Both the position numbers and the translations under genes were made by a program. A model generated the notes under the pieces. The model did not search any database. It was not told the origin of the DNA and was given only the letters and a program-made list of their open reading frames with translations. A stretch of 46,104 nt of DNA, from positions 1-46,104 of the forward strand of contig JAHFNY010000003.1 in assembly GCA_023267075.1 (NCBI GenBank), given 5' to 3'. This DNA comes from Candidatus Vogelbacteria bacterium (GTDB taxonomy: Bacteria; Patescibacteriota; Minisyncoccia; Phycocordibacterales; XYD1-FULL-46-19). How positions within the stretch are numbered: position 1 is the stretch's first letter; each line of letters begins with the position of its first letter. This document shows, one piece after another, positions 1,118 to 42,903 of the stretch.

Positions 1118-1624
1118 TTATTCGATAGGTTCTTTATACGGATCGAAGTCTTTTTTAGGACGACTGGCTAGATCGGCCGGGGTTAGAACCGTTTTTTCCT
1201 TATTGGTGAGTGTTGGTTCAGTGGTTTTAGCCATGAAAGAGCTGATTGGTGATTCAGCTTTAACTTCTGGCGTTTCAGTAGTCCCCGGTTCAAGATGGTG
1301 GATTTTCTTCAATGAGTCCCGAATGGGGGTAAAGATTTGCTCATTCACCTCGGTGGCTACACTCCGGGCAAGCTCCGGGGTGAGCGCGAGCTCTTTAGCG
1401 AGCGCCGCGACGAAGTCTCGCGGCGCGAGAATCCCGAGCATCACCAATCCCACCTGCGTCCCCAACTCCCCCGTCTGATCAATATGGAGCTTATACTTTT
1501 TAGCAATCGCTTGGATTTTATTAGCCGAGTCTACAGAAGAAATAGCTTCCTTCACATTGTCGGGTAGGCTGGCGTATTTTACTTCTATGTCATTGTTTTG
1601 GTCTAAATTAGTCATAGTTACCAA
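1118..1624 (-). CDS. hypothetical protein (168 aa), in the T4SS-like operon
   Basis: Long ORF that overlaps the upstream 884-aa ORF by 7 nt. No recognisable family. Confidence 0.55.
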   Translation of the reverse strand: MVTMTNLDQNNDIEVKYASLPDNVKEAISSVDSANKIQAIAKKYKLHIDQTGELGTQVGLVMLGILAPRDFVAALAKELALTPELARSVATEVNEQIFTPIRDSLKKIHHLEPGTTETPEVKAESPISSFMAKTTEPTLTNKEKTVLTPADLASRPKKDFDPYKEPIE

Positions 1625-4272
1625 GATTGAACATGATTATAAACCTGTTGGCTAACAGAAGTATAATTATTATTAATTACCCCTTTTAATAACTGTTTTT
1701 GTCCAGCATTTAAGTTCCCACTAACTCTCTGTAATTGCGCTAGATCAAGATGAGCTAGGTTGTTGATAATCTGTTGGTTATTTAGATCTAAAAGATTGTT
1801 GCTAAACATTTGGTTAATTTCATTATCACTCATCTGACTAATCTCATTTCTAAATTGATCAGTTGATAAGCGACCAGACGTTAAGTTGCTTACTTTAGAA
1901 GCTAAGGCTGGCGTTACTGGGGGAGTATTGGTTCTTGCATTGGCATTTTGACGGAAGAATATTCCTCCAGGTGATGATCCTAAATAACTTTTAGCTGAAT
2001 TTGTACCCATAGTCTGTATTTTTTGACCAATAATTTGTCTATCTCCTCGGCTAAGCGTATTTTCTCTTTGAATTGCTGCCAAGTCATCACCACCAAGATG
2101 ACTAATCACTCGATCATTAGTTAGGGTTTCTTTCTTTAGTCCAGCAACTTCTTTGCTAGTTAATTTATGAAGTTCTGCTTCTAAATCTCCTTGACCACCA
2201 GCAAGAATTTTATCAATGTTTTCTGATACAGCTTTTATCTCAGCTATTCTTAGTTGTTCTTTTCTTAATTTCTCGAAGGTATCTTGTTTTTCCCCTTTCA
2301 GACCTTTAGTAAGATTATCTACTACCCCCTTATGTCTATTATCTATAGGCAGTTTAGAATGAAGATCAAATTTTTCTCGATCAGATAATTCACTAAAGGC
2401 TTTTTTCCTATCGGTTTCATTTAAGTTAGCTAAGTAACGAGCCTTGTCTTCTGGGGCTTTAAGGTTTCCAAGTAATTCTTTTTGCCTGTCTTGGCGTTTT
2501 TTCAGTCCTTCATCATAATTTGATTTAGCAATGCCAAATTTGGCTTGACCTCCATAACCAACTATCTGTCTTAAAGTACCACCAATTCTAGGTGACCGGC
2601 TTTCAATGTTTTTCATTAAGCTTGAATTGGCGATAGATCTTGAAGCTAAGCCAACAGTCCGAGTTAAAGCAAAACCAGCTCCTCCACCAACAACTGTGCC
2701 TAGGGCAAATGATTTTAATTTACTCCCTGCTTTGTGGGCTACTCCACTTCCAGCAGCCCCAATATTTTTAGCGGCAATAAATGAACCCAGCATCATGCCG
2801 TTAACAATAATGAAATAGACTAGAGTGACAACTCCAGCATGGCCCCCTGAGCTGGCAGCTATTTGGTCCCTTAAACTACCACCTGGTTCAAGTATGAAAG
2901 TTATAGTTATTAACATGAATAACATCATTACGGGAGCAAATAATGATTGGCTAATCAATTCTTTTAACCATCTTTGGGTATATTGACCTAAACCGGGGAC
3001 TGCTATACCTAAAAAGTAAACTGGCGAGGTTATAATTAGAATTATAAAAATTAGAGCCCTAGAAATTAATAACCAAGCCCCGGCTAACATTACGAAGGCA
3101 GTTATAAGAAATAGAATCATTTTTCCAAAAGCAGAAATAATTACCGTACCCATTCCAGAAGCAAAGTCACCCAAAGGATCAGCTTGAGCCAAAGTTACTC
3201 CAACATTCTCTAATTTCAAGGATTTAATAATTGCGGTAGTAAAATCACCCCCGCCAATAGTATTTATTTCATTATAAATTGGAATAGTGAAGATATTTGA
3301 TATATCTATTACTACTTTAGGTAAAATAGCACTAAAATTAACTAACAAAGCTACAATTATAATTTTAACTAATGCGGCTTTGGTATCTATCTTTATAACT
3401 GAATTTAAAACTGTACCAATGGCAATGTAAAGGAGAACAAAAATAAAAAATAAGTTACAGATATCCCTTACTATCCCCCAAGCGGCTCCAACCGCTTTCA
3501 TGCTCGCGAAGTAATAAAAATCAGTTATAGAAACTTTGGCTGCGACGTTAAAAATTGAATTAGCGAAGTAGGCAAGATAAGAAGATATCGAAGCCATTAA
3601 GTTACCAATCATCGCTATTAACTCTAAAGTACAACCAAACACACTAAAATTGGTTAAAGTACAAGACTGGGAACGTATGCGTTCAGCTTGGTCACTAGCA
3701 GCAAGACGAGTAGCTGTTTGTTCAGCGTGAGTATTTAATTCAGCCTGATTTTTCCTTTGGAGTTGATTTAATTCTTCTTGAGTGGCCCCGTTTTTTTGGG
3801 CTTGGAGTTCTTGAATTTTAAGATCAGCCGCATATAATTGTTGCCGGTATTTCTCTAAATCACTTTGGAGACTCGCGGTTTCTTGGCTCCATTTTTTTTG
3901 GGTTTGGCCAAAGAAATAATCATAGCCTATTTTACCTCCAATAGCTTGCGGACCGCCCACAGAAAGCCATGGTGAATTAAATACCGATTTAATTGAATCC
4001 CACCCACCACTAATAGTATTAGTAAAAGTTCCCCAGTAACCACTATTAGCTTCTATTTTAGCTGAAGTATCATCAATCGATTTATTTATTTGGTCTATTT
4101 GTTGTTGAAGAGTCTGGATTTGAGCATCTAGATTAGCGCTTGTGGTTGGGTCAACTGACTGGTTAGCCGCATAAGATAGAGAAGGTAGAACCAAAGACAA
4201 AATAAAACTGGCAAAAATTATATTTGTCGTTATTTTTTTGATCCACCCAGTTTTTTTGCCAAGAGAGAACAT
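1618..4272 (-). CDS. Polytopic membrane protein, TrbL/VirB6-like channel component, with an N-terminal coiled coil and a long hydrophilic C-terminal domain (884 aa)
   Basis: N-terminal signal/anchor, then a Q/L-rich coiled coil. A block of about 7-8 hydrophobic helices spans roughly residues 205-530, followed by a charged tail. Its position is in the operon with PrgI-like and VirB4-like genes. Confidence 0.6.
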   Translation of the reverse strand: MFSLGKKTGWIKKITTNIIFASFILSLVLPSLSYAANQSVDPTTSANLDAQIQTLQQQIDQINKSIDDTSAKIEANSGYWGTFTNTISGGWDSIKSVFNSPWLSVGGPQAIGGKIGYDYFFGQTQKKWSQETASLQSDLEKYRQQLYAADLKIQELQAQKNGATQEELNQLQRKNQAELNTHAEQTATRLAASDQAERIRSQSCTLTNFSVFGCTLELIAMIGNLMASISSYLAYFANSIFNVAAKVSITDFYYFASMKAVGAAWGIVRDICNLFFIFVLLYIAIGTVLNSVIKIDTKAALVKIIIVALLVNFSAILPKVVIDISNIFTIPIYNEINTIGGGDFTTAIIKSLKLENVGVTLAQADPLGDFASGMGTVIISAFGKMILFLITAFVMLAGAWLLISRALIFIILIITSPVYFLGIAVPGLGQYTQRWLKELISQSLFAPVMMLFMLITITFILEPGGSLRDQIAASSGGHAGVVTLVYFIIVNGMMLGSFIAAKNIGAAGSGVAHKAGSKLKSFALGTVVGGGAGFALTRTVGLASRSIANSSLMKNIESRSPRIGGTLRQIVGYGGQAKFGIAKSNYDEGLKKRQDRQKELLGNLKAPEDKARYLANLNETDRKKAFSELSDREKFDLHSKLPIDNRHKGVVDNLTKGLKGEKQDTFEKLRKEQLRIAEIKAVSENIDKILAGGQGDLEAELHKLTSKEVAGLKKETLTNDRVISHLGGDDLAAIQRENTLSRGDRQIIGQKIQTMGTNSAKSYLGSSPGGIFFRQNANARTNTPPVTPALASKVSNLTSGRLSTDQFRNEISQMSDNEINQMFSNNLLDLNNQQIINNLAHLDLAQLQRVSGNLNAGQKQLLKGVINNNYTSVSQQVYNHVQSW

Positions 4273-4273
4273 T

Positions 4274-6250
4274 TTATTGTTGAGGGGTTAAGTCACTGGT
4301 ACTGTGAGAACCGGAGAGCCAATCATAAACTGATTTAACAGCAGAATTAACTGAATTCATAATGGTGGAGCCGGAGAAAATATTTACAGAATCTGCACAC
4401 CCGGTGCCGTCGGAGGTTTTCTTCAAGCAATCTTTTTTAGGTAAAAATCCACCACCAGCAAGAGCTTCTTCTCTAGCATTTTGTTCAGCGGCGTCTTGTC
4501 TTAAGGCTAGTTCGTCCTTGCTGAACATGTAACTAGCATAAGGGTTGAGTGGACCTAGACCAGTTTTTTTAAGTAATCCCTGCCAGTATGATTCATTGTT
4601 ATTTTGTTGATTGGTGTTGTTGGTAGTGTTTTGTCCTGGGCCAACAACTGCTGATAGTAAGTAAGATGATATTCTTGTAGCAATATTGGGATTACTTTGA
4701 CCGGCCGTGTTGTTTGTATTTTGATCATCTTGATTGTCTGCTAAAGCTGCCGCTTCATCATCAGACAAGGTTGAGTTCATAATACCCTGTAATGATCCAG
4801 ATTGGTTGATTGTTAAAGCGGTTTTTACTTCAGAATCTGGCAATTCGTCATTAAACTTTTTAGCTTCATTTTGCCGGGCTTTATTAACGGTATCACCTAA
4901 GTTGGCTACTATTAATGGGTCGTTTTTACTGGGGTCAGAATTAGAATCATCAATTCCATAAGCATAGGCAAAAGTAGAATCATTTAGATTTTGCAATTTC
5001 TCACTAGAAATATCTCGTGCAATCCGGTCGGCAATTAAGGTTTGGAATTCCATGCGGCCCATGATGCCTTGGAGGTCGGCCATGCGGACGCAGTTGTCTA
5101 CCATTATTTTCTTCATTTCCTCAGAATTAAAGGCCGCCTGGTCGGTGAAGGTTCTAATCTGTCGTAAAGACACATCAGCATCGTAAGTATATTGAATTAT
5201 TGGTCCTGTTGGGAGAACATCATTTGGGCTACCGCCAGGATTGGGTGGATTATTGATGTTAAATAATTTATCTTCATACCCCCATTGATTATTTGGGTCA
5301 GTTGGGTACAAGGAACTATCAGCAAAGGGGTTAACATTACCGGTATTCATATTGGGATTATCTTTATTTGGAGTGATATTCATCTGCGGTACCAAATTCT
5401 CATCATAAACGATTCGATTAAAGATGTCGTAAGCCCCGGTGCTATTGTGGTTTAAATCAGCGTCATTGTAAGCGGCGTAGAACATGTATGGTAAGCAGTC
5501 GTTCATGTTGGCGGTTGAACAACCTGCCGTAGACACCATTTCTTTTGGATCATTATTCATTAATCCGTCGTTATCATTGTCGTCATCTAAAGATAGTCCG
5601 AGTTGGAACATTAATTGGCTGATGGACATAAAGCCATCCGGATATTGATTGGGAAAATTATCTTTGACGTATTTAACTAATGGATTGTAAGCGTTGGGGA
5701 CGCCAAAACCGTACCAGTCGTCGTAATTGCCTTTTAAGACAATGCCATCATTTGGATCGGAATCAACTCCTTTTGGGTTTGATTGAACCACGCTAGTACC
5801 TCCACCCTGAAACAAGCCATTAATTTTGCCGTCACCGTCGTAATCATTCCAAGCACCATTGCGAGACTGGAAGAAGTTGGGTTGTAGAAGTTTGCTCCAG
5901 ACGCCAGGTGGGGTATCTCCTCGGCCTTGTTTGATATAAGCATAAAGAAAATCGTTAACATCGGAAGAGCAAGAGATACGGTCATTTTCCCACTGTTGGG
6001 TTTTTACTTGCACATAGCCGGATAAAGCATCACCATATTGTTGGAATAGATCGTTAACGGTGGTGTTGGGTAAGTTAGAATCTAAGATATTTCGGACGGG
6101 TGAGTAAATAGCTTTATCTTGTTGGGGTAAGTAAGGATTTTTTAATTCTTGCTGGGAAGTTGGATTGGTTGATTGAGCTAGCACTAAAGTTGGTCCTAGC
6201 AATAAAGCCATAAAGATTTTCCGACCGTGATTTTTTAAAAATTCTTTCAT
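4274..6250 (-). CDS. Secreted Asn/Asp/Pro-rich protein with DxDxDG-type acidic motifs (658 aa)
   Basis: Signal-peptide-like N-terminus (KIFMALLLGPTLVLAQS). Acidic motifs DYDGDGKINGL, DSDPNDG and DDDNDNDGLMNNDP. The stop is 1 nt from the next ORF start. Confidence 0.6.
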   Translation of the reverse strand: MKEFLKNHGRKIFMALLLGPTLVLAQSTNPTSQQELKNPYLPQQDKAIYSPVRNILDSNLPNTTVNDLFQQYGDALSGYVQVKTQQWENDRISCSSDVNDFLYAYIKQGRGDTPPGVWSKLLQPNFFQSRNGAWNDYDGDGKINGLFQGGGTSVVQSNPKGVDSDPNDGIVLKGNYDDWYGFGVPNAYNPLVKYVKDNFPNQYPDGFMSISQLMFQLGLSLDDDNDNDGLMNNDPKEMVSTAGCSTANMNDCLPYMFYAAYNDADLNHNSTGAYDIFNRIVYDENLVPQMNITPNKDNPNMNTGNVNPFADSSLYPTDPNNQWGYEDKLFNINNPPNPGGSPNDVLPTGPIIQYTYDADVSLRQIRTFTDQAAFNSEEMKKIMVDNCVRMADLQGIMGRMEFQTLIADRIARDISSEKLQNLNDSTFAYAYGIDDSNSDPSKNDPLIVANLGDTVNKARQNEAKKFNDELPDSEVKTALTINQSGSLQGIMNSTLSDDEAAALADNQDDQNTNNTAGQSNPNIATRISSYLLSAVVGPGQNTTNNTNQQNNNESYWQGLLKKTGLGPLNPYASYMFSKDELALRQDAAEQNAREEALAGGGFLPKKDCLKKTSDGTGCADSVNIFSGSTIMNSVNSAVKSVYDWLSGSHSTSDLTPQQ

Positions 6251-11124: not shown

Positions 11125-12633
11125 TTATTGGCCCAACCGCCTAAGTCTATTTTCAATTTTTCCCCAAAATTTTTTCCAACGTCCGGTGTTTTTTATTTCT
11201 GTTGGTAGTGGTGAAGGTTGAACTTCAGTTTTCTTTTCTGGTTTGAGACCTAAGAACTGACCGTATTGTTCTTCTTCATTTTTTCGTCTATCCAGTTCCT
11301 TTTCTTTAGCTTGTTTCCAGTAAGCTTGTCTTAGTTGTTGTTTAATATTTTCTTTGGTTACATGTTTTGTTTCTGGAGTGGTGGGAAAAGCTTCAATCAT
11401 TTCATCAACCGTGTATTCCTTTTTTGGTTTCGTCTTTTCAGCTGGTTTTTTGAGATTTAAATTTCCCTGTTCGGCGGCCCACAGTAATTTATGGAAGGGT
11501 ACCACCTCCCTTTTCACCTCTTTATTCCGCCAGGTTTTATCTTCATTTTGTTTGGGTTGGAATTCTAACACGGCATAACCGTCTTTAAGGGCGGCATCTT
11601 CAGTTTTTGGTTCTCTCACCATTTCAATCACCTTGACCGCTTCGCCGCTAGGGGTAAAAATAGTTTGTCCAGCTTTCAAATTCAATGATTCAGTTTTATT
11701 TAATTTTTCTTTGGCTTCGTTGTATTTTTCATCAAATTCTTTCCGTCCTTGAATATTGTGAATATTTTCTTTAGATTTTTCGTAATCAGTAAAAGTCATT
11801 TGGGTTTTATCACCCGTGTCAATTTGTTCAAAACTAATTAATTTTTTATCCTGATCGATTGCAAAGACCCGGCGACTAATTCCCCCGCGGCTAGTTATCA
11901 CCTGACCAATTTTGGGTAAAATGGGTCTATCTAGCTCATCTAATATTTCCCGCGATTTTTCTAAAGAAGATGTCTTTGGCTTTTTGGTTTTAGTTTCTTT
12001 TGTTTGTGCTGGTTGTTTTTCTTGAATTGGTGGTTCTTGTTTTTCTAAATCAGCCAACATTTCTTCGTATCCTTCAGGAGTTTTTGATTCCCCGACTAGT
12101 TTTTGTTTATCAATTTGATCAGTTTTCTTTGGCTGTTCTTGTTTAGGTTTTCTCTTTCCTTTTGTTTGATATCCAACTGGTAAATATTCTTTGACTTCAT
12201 TTTGTAAACCTAACCACTGTTCTTTTGGTAAGACTTTGAACATACCTTCTTTATCAGTCCTCATATCCTTTTCAATTTTCCGATATTTCATCTTTCCGGT
12301 TTTGTCATCCCAGCCGATGATATGCAAGAATGAACCATCACTCATTTCTAAAATATCTCCTCGTTGAACAGTCTCCATGTTAATGGGTTTTTTTTCTTCG
12401 ATTTTTTCTAATTCTTTATCAGATTTTAATTCTAACCCTTTTCTTTCTCGTGTTCTTCCCCACTCTTCGGGAGTTAGTTTTACTGGTCTTGTTCCATTTT
12501 GGAATTCTATTAATCCATCCTCAAGTATTCTTGCTCTATATTCTTTGCCACTTTTTGACACAAAATGATCATATTGTGGTTCTTCGGCCTTATTTTCTAA
12601 TTTAGGAATTTCTTGACTCATTGTTTTAAGCAT
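11125..12633 (-). CDS. Lys/Glu-rich hypothetical protein (502 aa) with three similar G-[DQ]-x-I beta-motif segments
   Basis: Uninterrupted long ORF. Repeated segments are RGDILEMSDGSFLHIIGW, IGQVITSRGGISRRVFAI and AGQTIFTPSGEAVKVIEM. Confidence 0.65.
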   Translation of the reverse strand: MLKTMSQEIPKLENKAEEPQYDHFVSKSGKEYRARILEDGLIEFQNGTRPVKLTPEEWGRTRERKGLELKSDKELEKIEEKKPINMETVQRGDILEMSDGSFLHIIGWDDKTGKMKYRKIEKDMRTDKEGMFKVLPKEQWLGLQNEVKEYLPVGYQTKGKRKPKQEQPKKTDQIDKQKLVGESKTPEGYEEMLADLEKQEPPIQEKQPAQTKETKTKKPKTSSLEKSREILDELDRPILPKIGQVITSRGGISRRVFAIDQDKKLISFEQIDTGDKTQMTFTDYEKSKENIHNIQGRKEFDEKYNEAKEKLNKTESLNLKAGQTIFTPSGEAVKVIEMVREPKTEDAALKDGYAVLEFQPKQNEDKTWRNKEVKREVVPFHKLLWAAEQGNLNLKKPAEKTKPKKEYTVDEMIEAFPTTPETKHVTKENIKQQLRQAYWKQAKEKELDRRKNEEEQYGQFLGLKPEKKTEVQPSPLPTEIKNTGRWKKFWGKIENRLRRLGQ

Positions 12634-29128: not shown

Positions 29129-29980
29129 ATGCCAGTTAATGAAATTGAAAAATTAAAGACCCAATTTTTAGAATATTTAGAGATTGAGAAGGGGCGGAGC
29201 TTAAAGACGGTAGAGAATTAGGATCGCTACTTACGGCGCTTTATTACCTTCTCCAAGTTGACCAAGCCCGGCCAAATTGATGATGATATCGTCCGGAGCT
29301 TCCGCCTCACAATTAATCGCGAGGGGTTGAAGAAGAACACCCAGAATTATTATCTCATTGCTCTGCGTGTTTTTCTTAAAGATTTAACCAAGCGCGAGGT
29401 GGCCAGTTTGGCGCCCGAGCGGATTGAACTAGCCCGCACTGGCGGCCGCGAGCTTGACCTGGTCTCCAGTGCCGAGCTCACTCGCCTCTTAGATGGTCCG
29501 AAGGGGGGCGAGCTGGAGTCACTCCGCGACAAAGCCATTTTAGAACTTTTTTTCTCTACCGGTCTGCGGGTGTCGGAGCTCGCCTCTCTACCTCGCGATT
29601 TAGATCTTGCCCGCGATGAGTTCTCTATCCGCGGTAAGGGTGAGAAGGTGCGGATTGTTTTCCTCTCTCCCACCGCTAAAACGGCAATTAAAAATTATTT
29701 GGCCAAGCGTGAGGATGCGGCAGAAGATCGCCTCTTCCCTCTTACCTCGCGCAGTCTGGAGCGATTGGTGAAGAAGTATGCCATTAAGGCCGGCATTACC
29801 CGCAAGGTCACACCGCACACTCTCCGCCACGCCTTTGCCACTGATCTCCTTCAAAATGGTGCCGATATCCGCTCGGTCCAAGCTATGCTCGGCCACTCTA
29901 GTATCTCCACCACTCAAATTTACACTCACCTCACCGACAAACAACTCCGTGAAGTCCACAAAAAATTCCATTCAAGATGA
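29129..29980 (+). pseudogene. XerC/XerD-like tyrosine recombinase interrupted by an in-frame TAG at 29219-29221
   Basis: MPVNEIEKLKTQFLEYLEIEKGRSLKTVEN-TAG-DRYLRRF.. continues in the same frame. Catalytic R (GLRVSEL), HTLRHAF, LGH and IYTH are present. Confidence 0.75.
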
Positions 29981-37219: not shown

Positions 37220-37235
37220 TCCTTAGAGCAAAAAA

Positions 37236-37272
37236 CCGGCTCAAGCGTATAAAAGCGCTTGGGCCGGTTTTT
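37236..37272 (+). terminator. Hairpin terminator between convergent genes
   Basis: CCGGCTCAAGCG..GCGCTTGGGCCGG followed by TTTTT, with an A-run upstream. Confidence 0.55.
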
Positions 37273-37282
37273 CGTTGGCGAC

Positions 37283-37573
37283 TTAGGTTCTTGTGCATAC
37301 CCCTTCCCCCGAGACTTGCTGTTGATCCAACCAATTCTTCATCTCTGGTAATAGTCTCTCAAATTTGTCACCCTTAACAAAGATGACAAAGTTTAACTCA
37401 GGGCCACTAGACTCTAGAGTTAAGAGAATCTGATACCCCAACCCGGGGTCTTTTGAAGTTAAAGTTGAGATGAGAGTTTTTCCCTCTTCAACATCTTTCC
37501 GATTCATGTGGATTAGCGTCTTGTTATAAACAAACGCCTGAAATTTACCGACGATATCTTTTAGATTATTCAC
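37283..37573 (-). CDS. Hypothetical protein (about 96 aa; GTG start)
   Basis: AGGAGG sits 8 nt upstream of the second GTG (37573). No recognisable family. Confidence 0.5.
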   Translation of the reverse strand: MNNLKDIVGKFQAFVYNKTLIHMNRKDVEEGKTLISTLTSKDPGLGYQILLTLESSGPELNFVIFVKGDKFERLLPEMKNWLDQQQVSGEGVCTRT

Positions 37574-37654
37574 TTTTCTCACCTCCTTTCAAAAGTAGGT
37601 TAAGTTTAATCGCCAACTTGTAGAAGACCCTTCTACTTTAAGTCTAGCGCACTT

Positions 37655-37725
37655 TCGGGCTGCCGGGAATCGAACCCGGTCTATACCCACCCCATGGGCA
37701 CGTACTACCGGTATACTACAGCCCG
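37655..37725 (-). tRNA. tRNA-Pro(GGG)
   Basis: Minus strand: acceptor CGGGCTG/CAGCCCG, anticodon stem TGCCC/GGGTA, loop ATGGGGT, T-loop TTCGATT. Confidence 0.9.
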
Positions 37726-37845
37726 TAAACACGCCAAATGTAACACGTTTTTCAGGATTTTTCTAGAATTGGACGGCGGGGCCTTTCTTTCGGTATACTG
37801 CGGTTAGTTAGTTATTTTGCCACTCATACTAAGAGGGGAAATCAG

Positions 37846-38262
37846 ATGGGTAGACATTTTTGTCGCAATGGATGTCGTGGTAATGGGAAGAATCAGAGGA
37901 CTATTAGGAGAATTATCTGGGCCTCGGACCATCCTCTGGGAAAGGAACAACTCAAGGTATTGCAAGAGCTTCATCCTGATTTGCGGGTAAACTGGGATCC
38001 AGGTCTTATCGGGAATGACTGCGATTCCGCGGTCAAAGCTTTAAGAAAATGCCATGATGCCTTCGTGTATCTGGTGTGCAGTAAGGCTCAAAAGACAGTG
38101 TTGGATCTCGAGTGTGGGCGCGATCGGAGTTTGTCATACGGCTTTTTCTCAAAAGTCAGGCATAATGAAGGTCGGGAGAACTTTGATTTTGTTTTTCAAG
38201 TTTCCCACGGCGAAATGGAAGTGGTTTGGGAACGCAGAAAATGTTTGGCCGAGGTTGTGTAA
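37846..38262 (+). CDS. Hypothetical Cys/Arg-rich protein (138 aa)
   Basis: ORF followed by a strong terminator. No recognisable family. Confidence 0.55.
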   Translation: MGRHFCRNGCRGNGKNQRTIRRIIWASDHPLGKEQLKVLQELHPDLRVNWDPGLIGNDCDSAVKALRKCHDAFVYLVCSKAQKTVLDLECGRDRSLSYGFFSKVRHNEGRENFDFVFQVSHGEMEVVWERRKCLAEVV

Positions 38263-38268
38263 TATTCC

Positions 38269-38303
38269 GCCGGAGCGCGCTTTGCGCTCCGGCATTCTTT
38301 TTT
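38269..38303 (+). terminator. Intrinsic terminator
   Basis: GCCGGAGCGC-gcttt-GCGCTCCGGC followed by ATTCTTTTTT. Confidence 0.7.
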
Positions 38304-38320
38304 GTTAGGATAGATTGTTC

Positions 38321-38356
38321 GGCGGGTTTACCCGCCGGAGCTTTAGCGGAGGCGGG
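38321..38356 (+). repeat. GC-rich hairpin element (copy L3) abutting tRNA-Gly(TCC)
   Basis: GGCGGG-ttta-CCCGCC-GGAGCTTTAGCGGA-GGCGGG. The last GGCGGG overlaps the tRNA 5' acceptor strand. Confidence 0.5.
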
Positions 38357-38422
38357 ATTAGTTTAGTGGTAGAATGCCAGTTTTCCAAACTGGAGATGAG
38401 GGTCCGATTCCCTCATCCCGCA
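38352..38422 (+). tRNA. tRNA-Gly(TCC)
   Basis: Acceptor GCGGGAT/ATCCCGC, anticodon stem CCAGT/ACTGG, loop TTTCCAA, T-loop TCCGATT. Confidence 0.9.
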
Positions 38423-38449
38423 TTTATAAGCTTTTAAAATTAATTCAGA

Positions 38450-39277
38450 ATGAAACAGTTTGGCTATGTGAATGGGCAAATGGTTAAGATAAGTGAGCCC
38501 CAGGTTAAATTAAATGATCTCGCGCTCTTGCGAGGATATGCCGTGTTTGACTTCGTTAAAGTTATTAAAGGCAAACCCCTTTTCTGGCCGGAGCATTTAG
38601 CCCGGTTCCGTCGCTCGGCCAAGCGCCTTGGCCTCGCGATACCCAAAACTGATGCTCAAATTACCCTTGCGGCTAAAAGCTTAATTAAGAAAAATAATTT
38701 TACCGCTGGGAGTTTGCGTTTAATCTTAACTGGTGGGGAAACTGCTGATGGTTTGACTCCTAGTGGTAAAACTGTCTTTGCTATTTTGGCGGAGGATAGT
38801 TACACCTTGCCGGAGCCAGTATTTAAAACTGGTGGTAAATTAATTACTGTCGATTATGAGCGTCTTTTCCCCAGTGCTAAAACGACTAATTATCTTTTAG
38901 CCGTCAGCTTGTTGAAGAAAAAGCTTAAAGCCGGAGCCATAGAAATATTGTACGTGAAAGATAACCACGTGTTTGAAGCTTCTACCAGCAACTTCTTCCT
39001 TGTTTTTGGCAATAAAATTGTCACGCCTAAAGATGGCGTTCTCCCTGGGATTACTCGCGCTAAAGTAATTGGTTTGGCTAAAAAGTTGGGTTATAAAGTA
39101 GAAGAGCGGAAAATTAAAGTTAATGAAATTAAACGGGCAAGCGAGGCCTTCCTCACCGCCACTAATAAAGATGTCGCTCCCATCATCAACATTGATGGCC
39201 AGAAAATTGGCAATGGTAAAGTGGGGGAGGTGACTAAAAGCTTATTGAAAAAGTATCGTAAATTAATTAACAGTTAA
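38450..39277 (+). CDS. Class IV (branched-chain / D-amino-acid) aminotransferase
   Basis: LLRGYAVFDFVKV, HLARFRRSA, SAKTTNYL (catalytic Lys context), and GITR. Confidence 0.85.
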   Translation: MKQFGYVNGQMVKISEPQVKLNDLALLRGYAVFDFVKVIKGKPLFWPEHLARFRRSAKRLGLAIPKTDAQITLAAKSLIKKNNFTAGSLRLILTGGETADGLTPSGKTVFAILAEDSYTLPEPVFKTGGKLITVDYERLFPSAKTTNYLLAVSLLKKKLKAGAIEILYVKDNHVFEASTSNFFLVFGNKIVTPKDGVLPGITRAKVIGLAKKLGYKVEERKIKVNEIKRASEAFLTATNKDVAPIINIDGQKIGNGKVGEVTKSLLKKYRKLINS

Positions 39278-39334: not shown

Positions 39335-39607
39335 TTATTTAACCGCGTCTTTGAACGCTTTCGCGGGGCGGAACTTTGGCACCTTCATGGCGGCAACTTG
39401 GACCGAGGCGCCAGTGCGCGGATTGCGCGCGGTGCGCGCGGCTCGTTGCTTAACCGAGAAAATGCCCAAGCCGGCAATGGAGACCTCGCCGCCCTTCTTT
39501 AAAGTGCCAACGATGGAATCAATGACTTTATCTACGGCTTGCTCGGCTTGCACCTTAGTGCCGCCTAAAACCTCGTGGACAGCATCCACAATGGCCATTT
39601 TATTCAT
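39335..39607 (-). CDS. hup: HU-family DNA-binding protein
   Basis: GFGIF-like GLGIFSVKQRAARTARNPRTG arm. 90 aa. Confidence 0.9.
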   Translation of the reverse strand: MNKMAIVDAVHEVLGGTKVQAEQAVDKVIDSIVGTLKKGGEVSIAGLGIFSVKQRAARTARNPRTGASVQVAAMKVPKFRPAKAFKDAVK

Positions 39608-39728
39608 AAAAATAAATTGGGCTTACTTTTTAATAAGACGACCTAGTTTTCTCCACCTGTTTTAAGTATATAACTGGCCCTTTTTAAGCGCAATAGAGCC
39701 ATATTTTAGCGGGGATAAGTGAAAATAC

Positions 39729-39757
39729 TTGACTTTTAATCTGATATATGCTAAGAT
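39729..39757 (+). promoter_or_regulatory. Cassette A promoter
   Basis: TTGACT, 17 nt, TAAGAT. Same geometry and the same -10 as cassette B. Confidence 0.65.
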
Positions 39758-39765
39758 TAAGCAAT

Positions 39766-39820
39766 AGCATTAATCAGCTCTGTTCCTTGAAATTGTTTCT
39801 ACGCCACCATTCAGGCGATT
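39766..39820 (+). promoter_or_regulatory. Conserved 5' leader motif, copy A
   Basis: AGCATTAATCAGCTCT..TTGAAATTGT..CGCC-ACCATTCA-GGCG-ATT. It aligns with copy B at 40740-40791. Confidence 0.5.
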
Positions 39821-39891
39821 ACCGAGAGGTAGAAAACACTTACGGTCATAATGACTGTAAGTAATTGCCTGATGGCAAGGAGAAAATAGTT

Positions 39892-40116
39892 ATGAGTGTG
39901 AGGCATCCCAAAGTGACTGGCACCAAGAGAGCCGACGTGGCTCTCTTCGGGGATGAGGAGGCCAAGAAGTATGGTCTCCACCCCCGTCGAACCGGCCGAG
40001 CCGGTCGAGGGAAAAAAAGAAGTTACCCCGACGACCGGGATGATAATTTCCCGGCCGCGGTGAAAAATCGTTCCTGGAAGAGGTATCGCCTCTTCCAGAG
40101 AAGAAAGGGGAAGTAA
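39892..40116 (+). CDS. Highly basic small protein (74 aa)
   Basis: AAGGAG sits 8 nt upstream of the ATG at 39892. No recognisable family. Confidence 0.5.
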   Translation: MSVRHPKVTGTKRADVALFGDEEAKKYGLHPRRTGRAGRGKKRSYPDDRDDNFPAAVKNRSWKRYRLFQRRKGK

Positions 40117-40118
40117 AA

Positions 40119-40394
40119 ATGGAAAGGAAATTTATGATGGGGACCGTGGCCTTCTTCCACGGTTTGGACATCACCAGGCCAGCGTCAACTGGCCTGGACA
40201 CCGTAGAAAATGTGTTCGAGGTAGAGGGAGAAGAAGAATTCTCCTATCTCGGACACTGGGTTGTAGGACTCGGTTTCCTCGGGGTCAAATTCCCCAAGGA
40301 AACATCCCGAAATCTGACGGCGGATGAAGAAGAGTTTTGCCGTCAAAAAAGCATAATCATCGGGGGTAATAAAATACCCCTGATGGGAAGGTAG
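40119..40394 (+). CDS. hypothetical protein (91 aa)
   Basis: ORF 2 nt after the upstream stop. No recognisable family. Confidence 0.5.
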   Translation: MERKFMMGTVAFFHGLDITRPASTGLDTVENVFEVEGEEEFSYLGHWVVGLGFLGVKFPKETSRNLTADEEEFCRQKSIIIGGNKIPLMGR

Positions 40395-40401
40395 ACAACA
40401 A

Positions 40402-40584
40402 ATGAGTACAAAAATGATCTTTGTCCTTTCGGTTGCGACCTCCGTGGTCGCAACTATGATTAGTACTGTCGGCTTTTGGGCTGCTGGTTTCCACCCCATA
40501 ATGGGGCAGCTGGTTAGCACACCAGCCGCTCTGATTATAGGAGTCATGGCGGGGAGAGCAGCCGCCGTAAAAAATTTTAAGTAA
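40402..40584 (+). CDS. Small 2-TM membrane protein (60 aa)
   Basis: Two hydrophobic helices. GGAAGG lies upstream. Confidence 0.5.
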   Translation: MSTKMIFVLSVATSVVATMISTVGFWAAGFHPIMGQLVSTPAALIIGVMAGRAAAVKNFK

Positions 40585-40603
40585 TCACTAAGGTGGTTAC
40601 TAC

Positions 40604-40640
40604 CCGCGCCGAGAGCGAAAGCTCCGGCGCGGTTTTTTAT
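40604..40640 (+). terminator. Cassette A terminator
   Basis: CCGCGCCG-AGAGC-GAAA-GCTC-CGGCGCGG followed by TTTTTTATTT. Confidence 0.7.
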
Positions 40641-40704
40641 TTCTCGGTTTTTGTTTTAACGTTTACTTTTCCTTTTATATGATAATCTTATTGTATTAAT
40701 TAAC

Positions 40705-40733
40705 TTGACAAATATATTATCTTATGATAAGAT
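40705..40733 (+). promoter_or_regulatory. Cassette B promoter
   Basis: TTGACA, 17 nt, TAAGAT. Confidence 0.65.
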
Positions 40734-40739
40734 ACAGGT

Positions 40740-40791
40740 AGAGCATAAATCAGCTCTTTGAAATTGTCTTTACCCCACCAATCAGGGGATT
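40740..40791 (+). promoter_or_regulatory. Conserved 5' leader motif, copy B
   Basis: AGAGC-ATAAATCA-GCTCT-TTGAAATTGT-CTTTA-CCCC-ACCAATCA-GGGG-ATT. Confidence 0.5.
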
Positions 40792-40833
40792 CTGTTCCCA
40801 ACTGTTGGTCCTAAATGAAAAAGGAGACGAACT

Positions 40834-41277
40834 ATGAAGACCCTGATAACGAACGCATTTTCCCTTAACATGCTTGGAATTTTTCCGTCACAGATTGTGG
40901 TGGCAGAGATTTCCAAGGAACTTGCCACCGCACTCGCCACTTCAGCTTCAGCGGAAAGTGTTGTTGGTCATTTCGACACTGCCAAGTTGTTTAGTAGTGT
41001 GTTGGGAATAGAAATACCTGCCAACCGAGTGACCGTCACTCTTACCAGCGAGGAACAACTTCTCGTTGGTCAATACCGTGGTCCACGGTTGCCGGAAGGA
41101 ACGACTACTCTTCCTGAGGGAGCCACAATCCAATGGTTCCTGGTATATCTTGTGTCGTACACTCCAGATAGGGACATTTGCATCCACTGTAGCCACGATA
41201 ACGGGATTATCCACCCCGGTCATTGCTGGGGAGAGCACCGTGTCGGGATGGATTGTTGTTACTGCGGTGGTAACTGA
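40834..41277 (+). CDS. DUF1874 (STIV B116-like) domain protein with a Cys/His-rich C-terminal extension
   Basis: TLITNAFSLNMLG...VVGHFDTAKLFSSVLGIEIPANRVTVTL...LPEGATIQWF resembles the B116/DUF1874 pattern. The tail is CIHCSHDNGIIHPGHCWGEHRVGMDCCYCGG. Confidence 0.6.
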   Translation: MKTLITNAFSLNMLGIFPSQIVVAEISKELATALATSASAESVVGHFDTAKLFSSVLGIEIPANRVTVTLTSEEQLLVGQYRGPRLPEGTTTLPEGATIQWFLVYLVSYTPDRDICIHCSHDNGIIHPGHCWGEHRVGMDCCYCGGN

Positions 41278-41315
41278 TAACTAAGGAGGATATTAAGTAA
41301 AAAACTGTTAATTTG

Positions 41316-41355
41316 CCGCGCCGGGAGCGAAAGCTCCTCGGCGCGGTATTTTGTT
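41316..41355 (+). terminator. Cassette B terminator
   Basis: CCGCGCCG-GGAGC-GAAA-GCTCC-T-CGGCGCGG followed by TATTTTGTT. Near-identical to the cassette A terminator. Confidence 0.7.
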
Positions 41356-41373
41356 ATTCTAATTTTTAGATTT

Positions 41374-42903
41374 CTAACGAGCAAACTCAATGATCCGGGT
41401 CTCGCGCATCACTACTACTTTGATTTCACCCGGGTACTTAAGTTCTTGTTCAATCCGGACGGCGACCTCGCGGGCGAGTTTGCGCGCTTCCAGGTCGGTA
41501 ATCTCTTCCGGTTTAACGAAGACCCGGATCTCCCGGCCGGCGGCAATGGCGTACGTCTTCTCAATCCCTTTAAAGGTATTAGCAATATCTTCTAAGTCTT
41601 TCAGCCGTTTCAAGTAATTCTCTACCGAGTCGCGGCGAGCGCCAGGGCGCGAGCCCGAGATCTCGTCGGCCACTTTCACGATAATGGATTCAATCGTTTC
41701 ATATGGATATTCCTCATGATGAGCTTGCATTGCTTTAATCACCGCCTCGCCAGCGCCAAACTTCTCTAAGATCCGCCGGCCAATTTCCACGTGGGTACCA
41801 GGGACTTCATGATCCACGGCTTTACCAATATCGTGGAGGAGAGCGCCGGCTCGAGCGACTTGAATATCGGCACCCAACTCCTCAGCAATCATGGCCGCCA
41901 GGTGCGCCATCTCAATGGAGTGTTGGAGCACATTCTGGCCATATGAGGTGCGGAAGTGGAGTCGGCCCAAGATAATTAAGATTCGCGGGTCCAAGTTTAA
42001 GACGCCGGCTTCATAGGCAGCTTGCTCGCCCTTCTCTTTAATAATTTTAGAAATGTCTTCTTTAGCTTTATCTACGGTTTCTTCAATCTTGGCCGGTTGG
42101 ATCCGACCGTCTTTAATCAAATTCTCCAGCGCCACCCGGGCAATTTGCCGGCGGACTGGGTCAAAGGAGGAGAGGACGATGGAGCCAGGGGTGTCATCAA
42201 TAATTACTTCCACGCCAGTCGCTTTTTCAAAGGCTCTAATATTGCGCCCTTCTTTGCCAATAATCTTGCCTTTAATATCGTCGGAGGGGATGTCTACGGT
42301 AGTGGCCATCACTTCTGGCACAGTGGAGGAGGAGAGACGCTGAATGACCGAGGCCAAGATGTCCCGACCGCGTTGTTCTAAGCGCTCGGCGCCAGTGGTC
42401 TCTAATTTTCGCATTCGGACTATCAAGTCTTCTTCGGATTCTTGTTCTACGGCTTTCAAAAGTTCGGTTTTGGCCTCATCTTTGGTTAAATTACTTACCC
42501 GCTCTAATTCTTTAGTTTTATCTTGAGCGAGTTGGGAGACCTTTTCTTTAAGCTCTTTAATTTCTTCGGCCTTTTTCTTCAGACTATCGGCCTCTTGATC
42601 AATATCGGTCTGGCGCCGATCTAAGAGCTCGTCTTTCTTTAGAAGGCGATCCTCCAACTTTTTAAGTTGGGTTTCTTTTTCCTCATTTTTGGTTTTAGCC
42701 TCGGTGAGGATTTTGGTCGCTTCTTCTTCTGCTTCTTTAGTAATTTGCTGGGCTTGATCCTTGGCTTCAAGCATGGCTTGTTTCACCGAGAGCTCAAGCG
42801 ACCCCTTCTGGCTTAAGGTGACGAGCCAGCGGAGGAAGTAGCCAATGACCACACCAGAAAGACCGGCCACGCCGGTAAGGAGGATAATGGTGACTAAGTT
42901 CAT
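41374..42903 (-). CDS. rny: ribonuclease Y
   Basis: N-terminal TM, coiled coil, KH (GKIIGKEGRNIRAFE) and HD (LLHDIGKA). Confidence 0.9.
   Translation of the reverse strand: MNLVTIILLTGVAGLSGVVIGYFLRWLVTLSQKGSLELSVKQAMLEAKDQAQQITKEAEEEATKILTEAKTKNEEKETQLKKLEDRLLKKDELLDRRQTDIDQEADSLKKKAEEIKELKEKVSQLAQDKTKELERVSNLTKDEAKTELLKAVEQESEEDLIVRMRKLETTGAERLEQRGRDILASVIQRLSSSTVPEVMATTVDIPSDDIKGKIIGKEGRNIRAFEKATGVEVIIDDTPGSIVLSSFDPVRRQIARVALENLIKDGRIQPAKIEETVDKAKEDISKIIKEKGEQAAYEAGVLNLDPRILIILGRLHFRTSYGQNVLQHSIEMAHLAAMIAEELGADIQVARAGALLHDIGKAVDHEVPGTHVEIGRRILEKFGAGEAVIKAMQAHHEEYPYETIESIIVKVADEISGSRPGARRDSVENYLKRLKDLEDIANTFKGIEKTYAIAAGREIRVFVKPEEITDLEARKLAREVAVRIEQELKYPGEIKVVVMRETRIIEFAR

Follow-up and report, generated by a model that had tools for sequence, protein, structure and literature searches.

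The stretch of DNA analysed here, which we call the window, has 46,104 nt and corresponds to positions 1 to 46,104 of contig JAHFNY010000003.1 from Candidatus Vogelbacteria bacterium (assembly GCA_023267075.1). In this window the interval between the genes hup and rny is filled by two units, A (39729-40638) and B (40705-41356), both on the plus strand. Each unit has one or more payload genes enclosed in a shell, formed by a predicted promoter, a 5' leader, a post-stop motif and a terminator hairpin. The alignments presented below show that the two shells are homologous and that the payloads enclosed in them are unrelated. The features are the following (SD, Shine-Dalgarno sequence; UTR, untranslated region):

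39335-39607, minus strand: hup, coding for HU (90 aa; Pfam Bac_DNA_binding on the called gene); left boundary, reads away from the units
39729-39757, plus strand: predicted promoter of unit A, TTGACT-17-TAAGAT, with TG ahead of the -10 (extended -10)
39760-39824, plus strand: leader, copy A, with a hairpin at 39764-39781, the boxA-like GTTCCTTGAAA at 39782-39792, TTGAAATTGT, a hairpin at 39802-39817 and GATT
39825-39891, plus strand: part of the 5' UTR specific to A, with a 10-bp hairpin at about 39842-39864 and the SD AAGGAG at 39877-39882
39892-40116, plus strand: A1, 74 aa, pI 11.2, a member of a rare family of small basic proteins
40119-40394, plus strand: A2, 91 aa, acidic, an SD-led ORFan which starts 2 nt past the stop of A1
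40402-40584, plus strand: A3, 60 aa, hydrophobic (GRAVY 1.1), with two predicted membrane spans
40588-40638, plus strand: 3' shell of unit A, with CTAAGGTGG at 40588-40596, the hairpin CCGCGCCG-AGAGC-GAAA-GCTC-CGGCGCGG at 40604-40632 and a T-run at 40633-40638
40705-40733, plus strand: predicted promoter of unit B, TTGACA-17-TAAGAT, with TG ahead of the -10; the best match, 10 of 12
40736-40795, plus strand: leader, copy B, with a hairpin at 40740-40757, the boxA-like GCTCTTTGAAA at 40753-40763, a hairpin at 40773-40788 and GATT
40834-41277, plus strand: payload B, 147 aa, with a DUF1874/STIV B116-like domain (residues 1 to about 104) and a Cys/His-rich tail of about 40 aa; SD AAGGAG at 40821-40826
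41281-41356, plus strand: 3' shell of unit B, with CTAAGGAGG at 41281-41289, a hairpin at 41316-41346 and a T-rich tail
41374-42903, minus strand: rny, coding for RNase Y (509 aa); right boundary, convergent with the units

The sequence features listed by the initial annotation are all found at these positions: the two TTGAC(T/A)-17-TAAGAT promoters, the common leader motifs with their second hairpin, AAGGAG in both units, CTAAGG(T/A)GG after the stop and the GAAA-loop terminator followed by a T-run. It had placed the locus between hup and rny, and both units do lie between 39607 and 41374; its four open reading frames (ORFs) of 74, 91, 60 and 147 aa are also present. No other sigma-70-like site predicted in the region scores as well as the two promoters, and that of unit B begins 66 nt past the terminator of unit A, so that terminator and promoter are separate elements. 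The neighbourhood is chromosomal, with genes for UvrD, PNPase, the CCA-adding enzyme, ClpP and trigger factor. By its RNase Y homologues the window belongs to bacteria of the candidate phyla radiation similar to Paceibacteria/Vogelbacteria. The flanking genes are core genes, syntenic in relatives, in which the orthologous hup adjoins rny. Three other assemblies contain contigs (L001-L003) which are 100% identical to the window and bridge both units. Since these independent assemblies reproduce it, the arrangement in two units is not an assembly artefact.

All four cassette genes have an SD sequence, against about 4 of the 41 other genes in the window (Fisher p = 5e-4), as the initial annotation had stated when it called these genes SD-led and unlike the core. 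This contrast supports a foreign origin of the payloads, or a distinct expression regime. Many core genes have TATAAT directly before the start codon (for example those starting at 1089, 6975, 20234, 25582 and 34398); widespread leaderless or SD-independent initiation is suggested for this organism. The related claim, that the cassette genes are richer in GC than the core, is weak: they have 49-56% GC, with 55% in hup, 50% in rny and a window mean of 44.9%.

Homology of the two shells

When unit A is compared with unit B by blastn, significant similarity is found only in a 5' block (E 2e-6) and in a 3' block (E 1e-8), and tblastx finds no similarity between the payloads of A and B. A third stretch, in the coding parts (40543-40564 against 41219-41240, 87% over 23 nt, E 0.016), was judged to be a chance similarity. 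Identity is unevenly distributed in the 5' block. The -35 hexamers agree in 5 of 6 positions, the extended -10 in 7 of 8 and the leaders, over 55 aligned positions, in 47. Identity is near background in the promoter spacer of 15 nt (6 of 15) and in the 8 nt past the -10 (3 of 8). The hexamer TAAGAT, which is not the consensus -10, is the same in both copies. From this patchy identity we infer selection on discrete functional blocks, not a young duplication: functional constraint is favoured because the spacer has fallen to background identity while the leader is conserved, as if unconstrained positions had become saturated and the functional blocks had been kept.

The two copies of the leader (39760-39824 and 40736-40795) have 86% column identity in their alignment. 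They share AGCATwAATCAGCTCT, TTGAAATTGT and a second hairpin, which is closed by CGCC/GGCG in A and by CCCC/GGGG in B. This hairpin has 4 bp and an 8-nt loop; a double change from G-C to C-G keeps the pairing and gives one compensatory pair. Hairpin 1 has a single U-C mismatch in A and none in B. It stands where the mRNA is predicted to begin, a position which we regard as typical of 5' stabilisers. A covariance model of the leader (R1, 65 nt) gives 91 bits for copy A and 85 bits for copy B. The whole 5' UTR has about 125 nt in unit A and about 95 nt in unit B. The leader of unit A, which folds with -38.9 kcal/mol (z -3.85), contains an extra segment of about 34 nt (39825-39870) that corresponds to a gap in B and holds the 10-bp hairpin CTTACGGTCA-TAA-TGACTGTAAG.

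The presence of a known riboswitch or ribozyme in leaders and tails was rejected: with gathering scores Rfam finds only tRNAs in the whole window, and a search of 39600-41400 up to E = 10 gives only chance-level matches, none of them within the leader blocks. Pairing of the 5' and 3' UTRs (leader CCACC with post-stop GGTGG) was also considered, and dropped on reading the sequence, as unit B has GGAGG and does not covary.

Between the two hairpins there is a motif similar to boxA. Compared with the consensus GYTCTTTAANA, which is gamma-proteobacterial and may not be that of this phylum, GCTCTTTGAAA of unit B agrees in 9 of 10 specified positions and GTTCCTTGAAA of unit A in 8 of 10. Both have C4, which is critical in this consensus (10.1101/091223). 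The common form GYTCYTTGAAA occurs exactly in the window only in the two leaders; with one mismatch its matches are no commoner than in shuffled sequences, and the motif was picked post hoc. It agrees in 10 of 11 positions with GTTCTTTGAAA, presumably a mycoplasma boxA. This is a conserved sequence of the mycoplasma rRNA spacer (PMC4312986). No match to GYTCYTTGAAA was found in the loci of relatives (L047-L055), and Rfam finds no rRNA operon within the window. Like boxA/nut leaders, the two leaders have the motif, with C4, between small hairpins, just past a strong predicted promoter, and an intrinsic terminator closes the unit. They differ from them by one or two mismatches to the consensus. 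As a post hoc lead, boxA between hairpins may indicate an antitermination leader of the nut or rrn type, which would be sensible for poorly coupled foreign genes.

In the 3' shells the motif CTAAGGWGG is found three bases past the stop in A (CTAAGGTGG) and directly after a double stop in B (CTAAGGAGG). Then come the terminator hairpins, which differ only by an A/G change and a CT bulge of 2 nt. Their GC stems have 12-13 bp, the loop is GAAA and a T-run comes next; the energies are -28 kcal/mol in A and -33 kcal/mol in B (z about -4.6). Between stop and hairpin the two spacers (7 and 26 nt) do not align; the hairpin stems are nonetheless identical. A 21-nt terminator pattern, CCGCGCCGRGAGCGAAAGCTC, has two matches in the window and none in 100 shuffles. 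A distance of 28 nt separates the 3' shell of unit B from the stop of rny, and for this reason the terminator of unit B probably also ends the transcription of rny.

The rny-hup site in relatives and the search for further copies

The same interval was compared in relatives with 81-87% identity in RNase Y (we keep our labels for these loci). Its content is variable:

L048 and L049: empty, 146 nt
L053: empty, 114 nt
L047 and L052: a single ORFan, 158 and 157 aa
L054 and L055: a single ORFan, 86 aa
L050 and L051: three other genes

The single ORFans of L047/L052 and L054/L055 are each provided with a promoter of TTGACA type, an SD and a terminator hairpin of their own. Measured from a conserved block near hup, GCCATATTTT, the promoters of unit A and of L047/L052 have exactly the same offset. 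Beyond about +15 the leader of L047/L052 differs from that of unit A, and so do the payload and the terminator. A comparison of presence and absence between strains had been proposed in the initial annotation; in these relatives it gives empty intervals in L048/L049 and L053 and other units elsewhere. The rny-hup interval thus appears as a resident variable site with turnover of payloads. Turnover at the site is favoured over one insertion event because unit A and L047/L052 have their promoters at orthologous positions, and the term moron-like is appropriate because the site is empty in some relatives and occupied by other self-contained units in others.

Two details of these relatives should be mentioned. 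In the leader of L047/L052 (L047 5230-5300, minus strand) there is a hairpin of 9 bp, GGAGGTTAT-ctgt-ATAACTTCC, with TTTTG directly behind it, which looks like an attenuator or terminator upstream of the 158-aa ORFan. The 'empty' spacer of L048 (7627-7646, minus strand) and L049 holds TTTACCCCACCAtggcGGGG, which resembles a 20-nt insertion relative to L054. Its first 12 nt are the 5' arm and the start of the loop of hairpin 2 in leader B (window 40770-40788), in the same orientation. In about 150 kb of related loci this spacer is the only other occurrence of TACNCCACCA. This may be a relic, or else a small hairpin element that is independent of the leader.

Further copies of the shell were searched for with exact patterns in IMG/VR, in one genome for each of 185,579 GTDB species and in JGI metagenomes. 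The pattern AATCAGCTCT-N0-8-TTGAAATTGT has 2 matches in IMG/VR and 23 in GTDB, all of them coding or unrelated, with neither hairpin nor promoter. In the JGI metagenomes CAGCTCT..TTGAAATTG..CCACCA has 11 matches, all due to chance. The hairpin-2 and terminator patterns have no match in IMG/VR. The covariance model finds only the two window copies in the window plus 16 related or other loci (about 120 kb), and nothing in 59 viral DUF1874 loci (331 kb); in total it covered about 0.5 Mb. The modular scaffold for different payloads, which the initial annotation had proposed together with a search for more copies of the leader and terminator, is not supported, as these scans, which did not extend to the rest of the source genome, give no copy beyond these two. 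A link of the leader with the DUF1874 gene family was also rejected: the DUF1874 homologues in L006 and L008 have unrelated long 5' UTRs.

The payload genes

Remote-homology searches, which the initial annotation had also suggested, give a DUF1874 protein in unit B and, in unit A, a rare family (A1), an ORFan (A2) and a peptide with two membrane spans (A3). The DUF1874-like assignment of payload B proves to be above the Pfam threshold: it scores 33.4 bits against PF08960 (STIV_B116-like/DUF1874; cut-off 26, E 5e-8). It also matches PADLOC Csx16 (2.6e-9) and phrog_5063 (2e-17), and it can be aligned with the solved structures of SIRV1 gp29 (2x4i/6scf), AFV3-109 and STIV B116, its relatives in the PDB including 2j6b and 2j85. 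In this comparison GH46 corresponds to GH47 of 2x4i, and to GA in 6scf, the H47A crystal in complex with cyclic tetra-adenylate (cA4). Throughout the family alignment H46, R85 and E88 do not vary. The family has been named AcrIII-1 in viruses and Crn2 when it is associated with CRISPR, and His47 of SIRV1 gp29 is catalytic (10.1101/778746). The THSA-485A phage protein, which is 44% identical to payload B, abolishes type III CRISPR immunity dependent on cA4 (10.1101/778746).

The comparison shows payload B to be a homologue of the AcrIII-1/Crn2 ring nucleases in which the catalytic His has been kept, and it most likely degrades cA4. It shares with this family the N-terminal part of about 104 residues, the GH motif, R85 and E88. 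It differs by the extra Cys/His-rich tail of about 40 residues; such tails are present in a minority of homologues and are not conserved between them. It also differs by its location in a chromosome, with no recognisable virus or adjoining type III CRISPR genes in the window. DUF1874 homologues are found on 59 IMG/VR contigs, jumbo phages included, and in L006, an element with integrase and AlpA genes. A mobile or viral source for payload B fits with these homologues. The suggestion that the payloads serve defence, anti-defence or toxin immunity finds support for one payload: for payload B an anti-defence function is plausible, given its family.

Two of the homologues have contexts of their own. 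P0053, in L008, is the nearest full-length homologue with a Cys-rich tail. Its gene is found between a ribbon-helix-helix/85-aa pair, similar to a toxin-antitoxin pair, and the gene for EF-Tu. The gene is preceded by a TTGACA promoter of its own, with about 150 nt of 5' UTR in which there is an imperfect hairpin whose arms have about 20 nt (L008 3800-4000, 4441-4800), and it is followed by a non-coding stretch of 360 nt. P0020 (ENA ERZ1426827), a close homologue, comes after a gene-free gap of 1.36 kb and is directly upstream of a Ro60/TROVE-vWA gene. This context usually involves non-coding Y RNAs.

In unit A, A1 has five distant homologues among 1.84 billion representative proteins. They share an invariant R..P..R..W-K-R motif, and the pattern RHPK...KRA...DEDA...DRSWKRYR is conserved in the family. 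A1 has no match in Pfam, PHROGs, PADLOC or NCBIfam, and no homologue was found in phages or IMG/VR. Because the five homologues share a conserved pattern, A1 can be taken as a genuine, rare protein family; it probably binds nucleic acids. A2 finds only itself in a search of 5.8 billion proteins and has no family match. The AlphaFold2 (AF2) models of A1 and A2, with pLDDT values of 54 and 41, are too low for a fold search. A3 has only weak sub-threshold matches to families with two transmembrane segments.

One homologue of A1 is found in an unusual context. In L056 (Logan SRR22388054, 1-1069) the homologue P0245 (72 aa) and a Cys-rich ORF of 67 aa, at 162-365 and 469-687, are enclosed between two hammerhead-like elements at 34-90 and 804-856. 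These are of type III, in direct orientation and with the full CUGAUGA...GAAA core; their scores of 29.6 and 29.8 bits (E about 4e-4) are under the Rfam gathering score of 48.5. The pair is not an artefact of circular permutation, because the two copies differ. This arrangement suggests that the A1 family may have gene units bounded by ribozymes. A kinship of the Cys-rich ORF of L056 with the Cys-rich tail of payload B was rejected (BLASTP E = 8.4).

Origin and role of the units

We lean, with modest confidence, towards considering A and B as two adjacent accessory units similar to morons, with homologous and apparently constrained shells, at a variable site specific to the lineage. Morons, in the concept of Hendrix and Juhala, are autonomous insertions of promoter, gene and terminator between conserved genes. 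The likeness to phage morons pointed out by the initial annotation stands in part. Both units have their own predicted promoter and terminator, they are inserted between genes which in relatives are adjacent (146 or 114 nt apart), their expression signals are unlike those of their neighbours and their payloads are accessory or look like anti-defence genes. The likeness fails in that they are located in the chromosome of a bacterium of the candidate phyla radiation (CPR) and not in a phage or prophage. They also differ from phage morons in being two neighbouring units with homologous flanks, which include a transcribed leader of about 60 nt. As far as the loci and collections compared can tell, we are dealing with a local gene-capture spot of phage-moron type and not with a widespread new system.

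The nearest concept described so far appears to be the PeSL of T4-type phages, in which repeated promoters of sigma-70 type and stem-loop/terminator motifs flank ORFans in plastic regions (PMC2839356; PMC4122927). A conserved regulatory sequence of about 100 bp has been proposed there as the recombination substrate which shuffles genes with their own promoter and terminator (PMC2839356; PMC4122927). There are about 50 copies in each phage genome, with experimental support (PMC2839356). In our units a motif of promoter and stem-loop is repeated, but only twice, and flanks an ORFan (A2) and genes of rare families. There are two copies instead of about 50, in a cellular chromosome. The terminator and the next promoter are 66 nt apart, whereas PeSL is one compact motif, and the conserved part runs here into the 5' UTR. 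Mini-circles and indels bounded by the motif belong to PeSL; our units are known only as sequences.

Under the moron-like reading, the site would be the rny-hup spacer of a CPR chromosome of the Paceibacteria/Vogelbacteria type and the two units would be transcribed independently. Each would consist of an extended -10 promoter, a 5' UTR with hairpin, boxA-like motif and hairpin, an SD-led payload and an intrinsic terminator with a GNRA loop. The shells could have a common element as their ancestor, or one could be descended from the other; this would have come about by duplication, or else by recombination within the shell sequences of the kind suggested for the PeSL cassettes. The payloads look acquired, being SD-led in a mostly SD-less genome. 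The shell would provide the start of transcription, probably protection of the mRNA 5' end and/or control of elongation, and insulation from the convergent rny. The ring nuclease of unit B would damp or subvert type III CRISPR signalling by cyclic oligoadenylates, and unit A would be a three-gene operon with a basic protein, an ORFan and a small membrane peptide. In all this, promoter and terminator activity, constraint on the leader, recombinational origin and biochemical roles are what we infer.

Several observations weigh against this reading. Only two copies of the shell are known, and its reuse is unproven. The constraint on the leader is deduced from two sequences, by one compensatory pair and patchy identity. 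Among relatives none was found near enough to show a payload swap within the same shell: L001-L003 are identical, and the nearest distinct relatives, with about 85-87% identity in RNase Y, have different leaders. Finally, there are no cas or CARF genes among the ORFs of the window scanned with Pfam, so that no target of the ring nuclease within the organism is shown.

It may also be that the locus is a plain tandem duplication in situ followed by the replacement of one payload, the flanks being left over from a common ancestry, with neither function nor modularity. We consider this unlikely, though it has real points in its favour: there are only two copies, which are adjacent, none was found elsewhere, both tails are rich in T as far as the feature that follows, and L047/L052 have a single unit with its promoter at the same position. 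The tails themselves do not discriminate between duplication in situ and the stacking of two alleles, as they are of low complexity and their alignment is unstable. Against a duplication stand the non-consensus TAAGAT, identical in both copies, and above all the uneven similarity: a neutral relic would decay evenly, whereas here the promoter spacer and the 8 nt past the -10 are at background, the leader is at 86% and the terminator stems are identical. The initial annotation had opposed to its own proposal a simple recent tandem duplication with no further copies anywhere; further copies were indeed not found, but the pattern of conservation is not that of a recent tandem duplication. Rather improbable in our view is a shared block past the promoter which serves for co-regulation by a single regulator, either as a DNA operator or as a boxA/nut-like RNA site for Nus factors with resistance to Rho, the terminator being incidental. 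This would agree with the restriction of exact GYTCYTTGAAA to the two leaders, with its similarity to boxA (C4 included) and to GTTCTTTGAAA, and with the flanking hairpins, which are as in rrn and nut leaders. Between its two forms an RNA site is favoured over a DNA operator because hairpin 2 shows a compensatory change. On the other hand, the motif was chosen post hoc, it is no commoner than in shuffles when one mismatch is allowed, it has no match in L047-L055, and co-regulation leaves unexplained why the terminators are identical in sequence.

Two other explanations involve mobile elements, and we find both very improbable. In a site-specific cassette system of integron or REP/RAYT type the 3' palindrome would be a recombination site. 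Like integron cassettes, the units are tandem, have unrelated payloads and are each followed by an imperfect palindrome, which is conserved in sequence as well as in structure; there is also a tyrosine recombinase gene 9.7 kb away. But this enzyme gives 117 bits with the integron-integrase model, whose cut-off is 265, and is of Xer type; no IntI gene is adjacent. Between its gene and the units there are housekeeping genes and tRNAs, and the units, unlike integron cassettes, have their own promoters. On direct reading the hairpin region has no R''/L''-L'/R' or GTTRRRY organisation, and the T-run after the palindrome is in the style of an ordinary terminator. Moreover the palindrome has two copies in 46 kb and none in IMG/VR. 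An integron was rejected on the type of recombinase and on the promoter in each unit. The second explanation is a decayed small mobile element or prophage remnant which would have brought all four genes and the repeated signals. DUF1874 is common in viruses and is present in L006, which bears an integrase, the A1 homologue of L056 lies between ribozyme-like elements, and the SD-led genes are unlike the core. Nevertheless the region has only 1.6 kb, with no integrase, structural or replication gene, its flanking genes are core and syntenic, and at the position orthologous to the promoter of unit A L047/L052 have the promoter of a different unit.

The moron-like reading can be extended in a more speculative way, to which we give little weight: the shell could be a portable expression module under selection, its leader would recruit a host factor (a complex of Nus type or an RNA-binding protein), and the shells would be recombination handles which stack payloads at the rny-hup site. 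This would be a chromosomal counterpart of PeSL, with the cA4 ring nuclease as cargo which modulates cyclic-oligoadenylate immunity in the bacterium or in its host. If so, a CPR bacterium with largely SD-less or leaderless genes of its own would be able to express SD-led genes derived from phages. The uptake and expression of foreign genes in the tiny genomes of CPR/Patescibacteria are poorly known, and this locus offers a concrete, testable example: a conserved intergenic site where related species appear to gain and lose different small units with their own expression signals. A homologue of the virus-type cA4 ring nucleases that is encoded in the chromosome of a CPR bacterium, away from any CRISPR locus, also bears on the debate whether DUF1874 proteins are anti-CRISPRs or have other roles. 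The leader, if functional, would be a new cis-regulatory element; if it is not, the locus would be an ordinary duplication relic.

Other features of the window are the following. The tyrosine recombinase gene (29258-29980, plus strand) is found beside a tRNA cluster at 31.7-33.4 kb. Its product scores 207 and 206 bits as XerD and XerC, under the equivalog cut-offs; the called ORF is possibly too short at its N-terminus, which would lower these scores. Three ORFs with low GC, located at 1618-6250 and 11125-12633 on the minus strand, code for 884, 658 and 502 aa and have no Pfam match. They have 36-41% GC (GC at third codon positions 25-37%), in contrast with neighbours at about 50%, and may be acquired genes or code for surface proteins. 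A second variable interval is found at 37220-38450, between the genes for an RNA recognition motif (RRM) protein and an aminotransferase. It has about 620 nt with no ORF of at least 100 aa, an SD-led ORFan of 138 aa (37846-38262) and a tRNA (38352-38422); L047 and L048 hold different ORFans in this interval.

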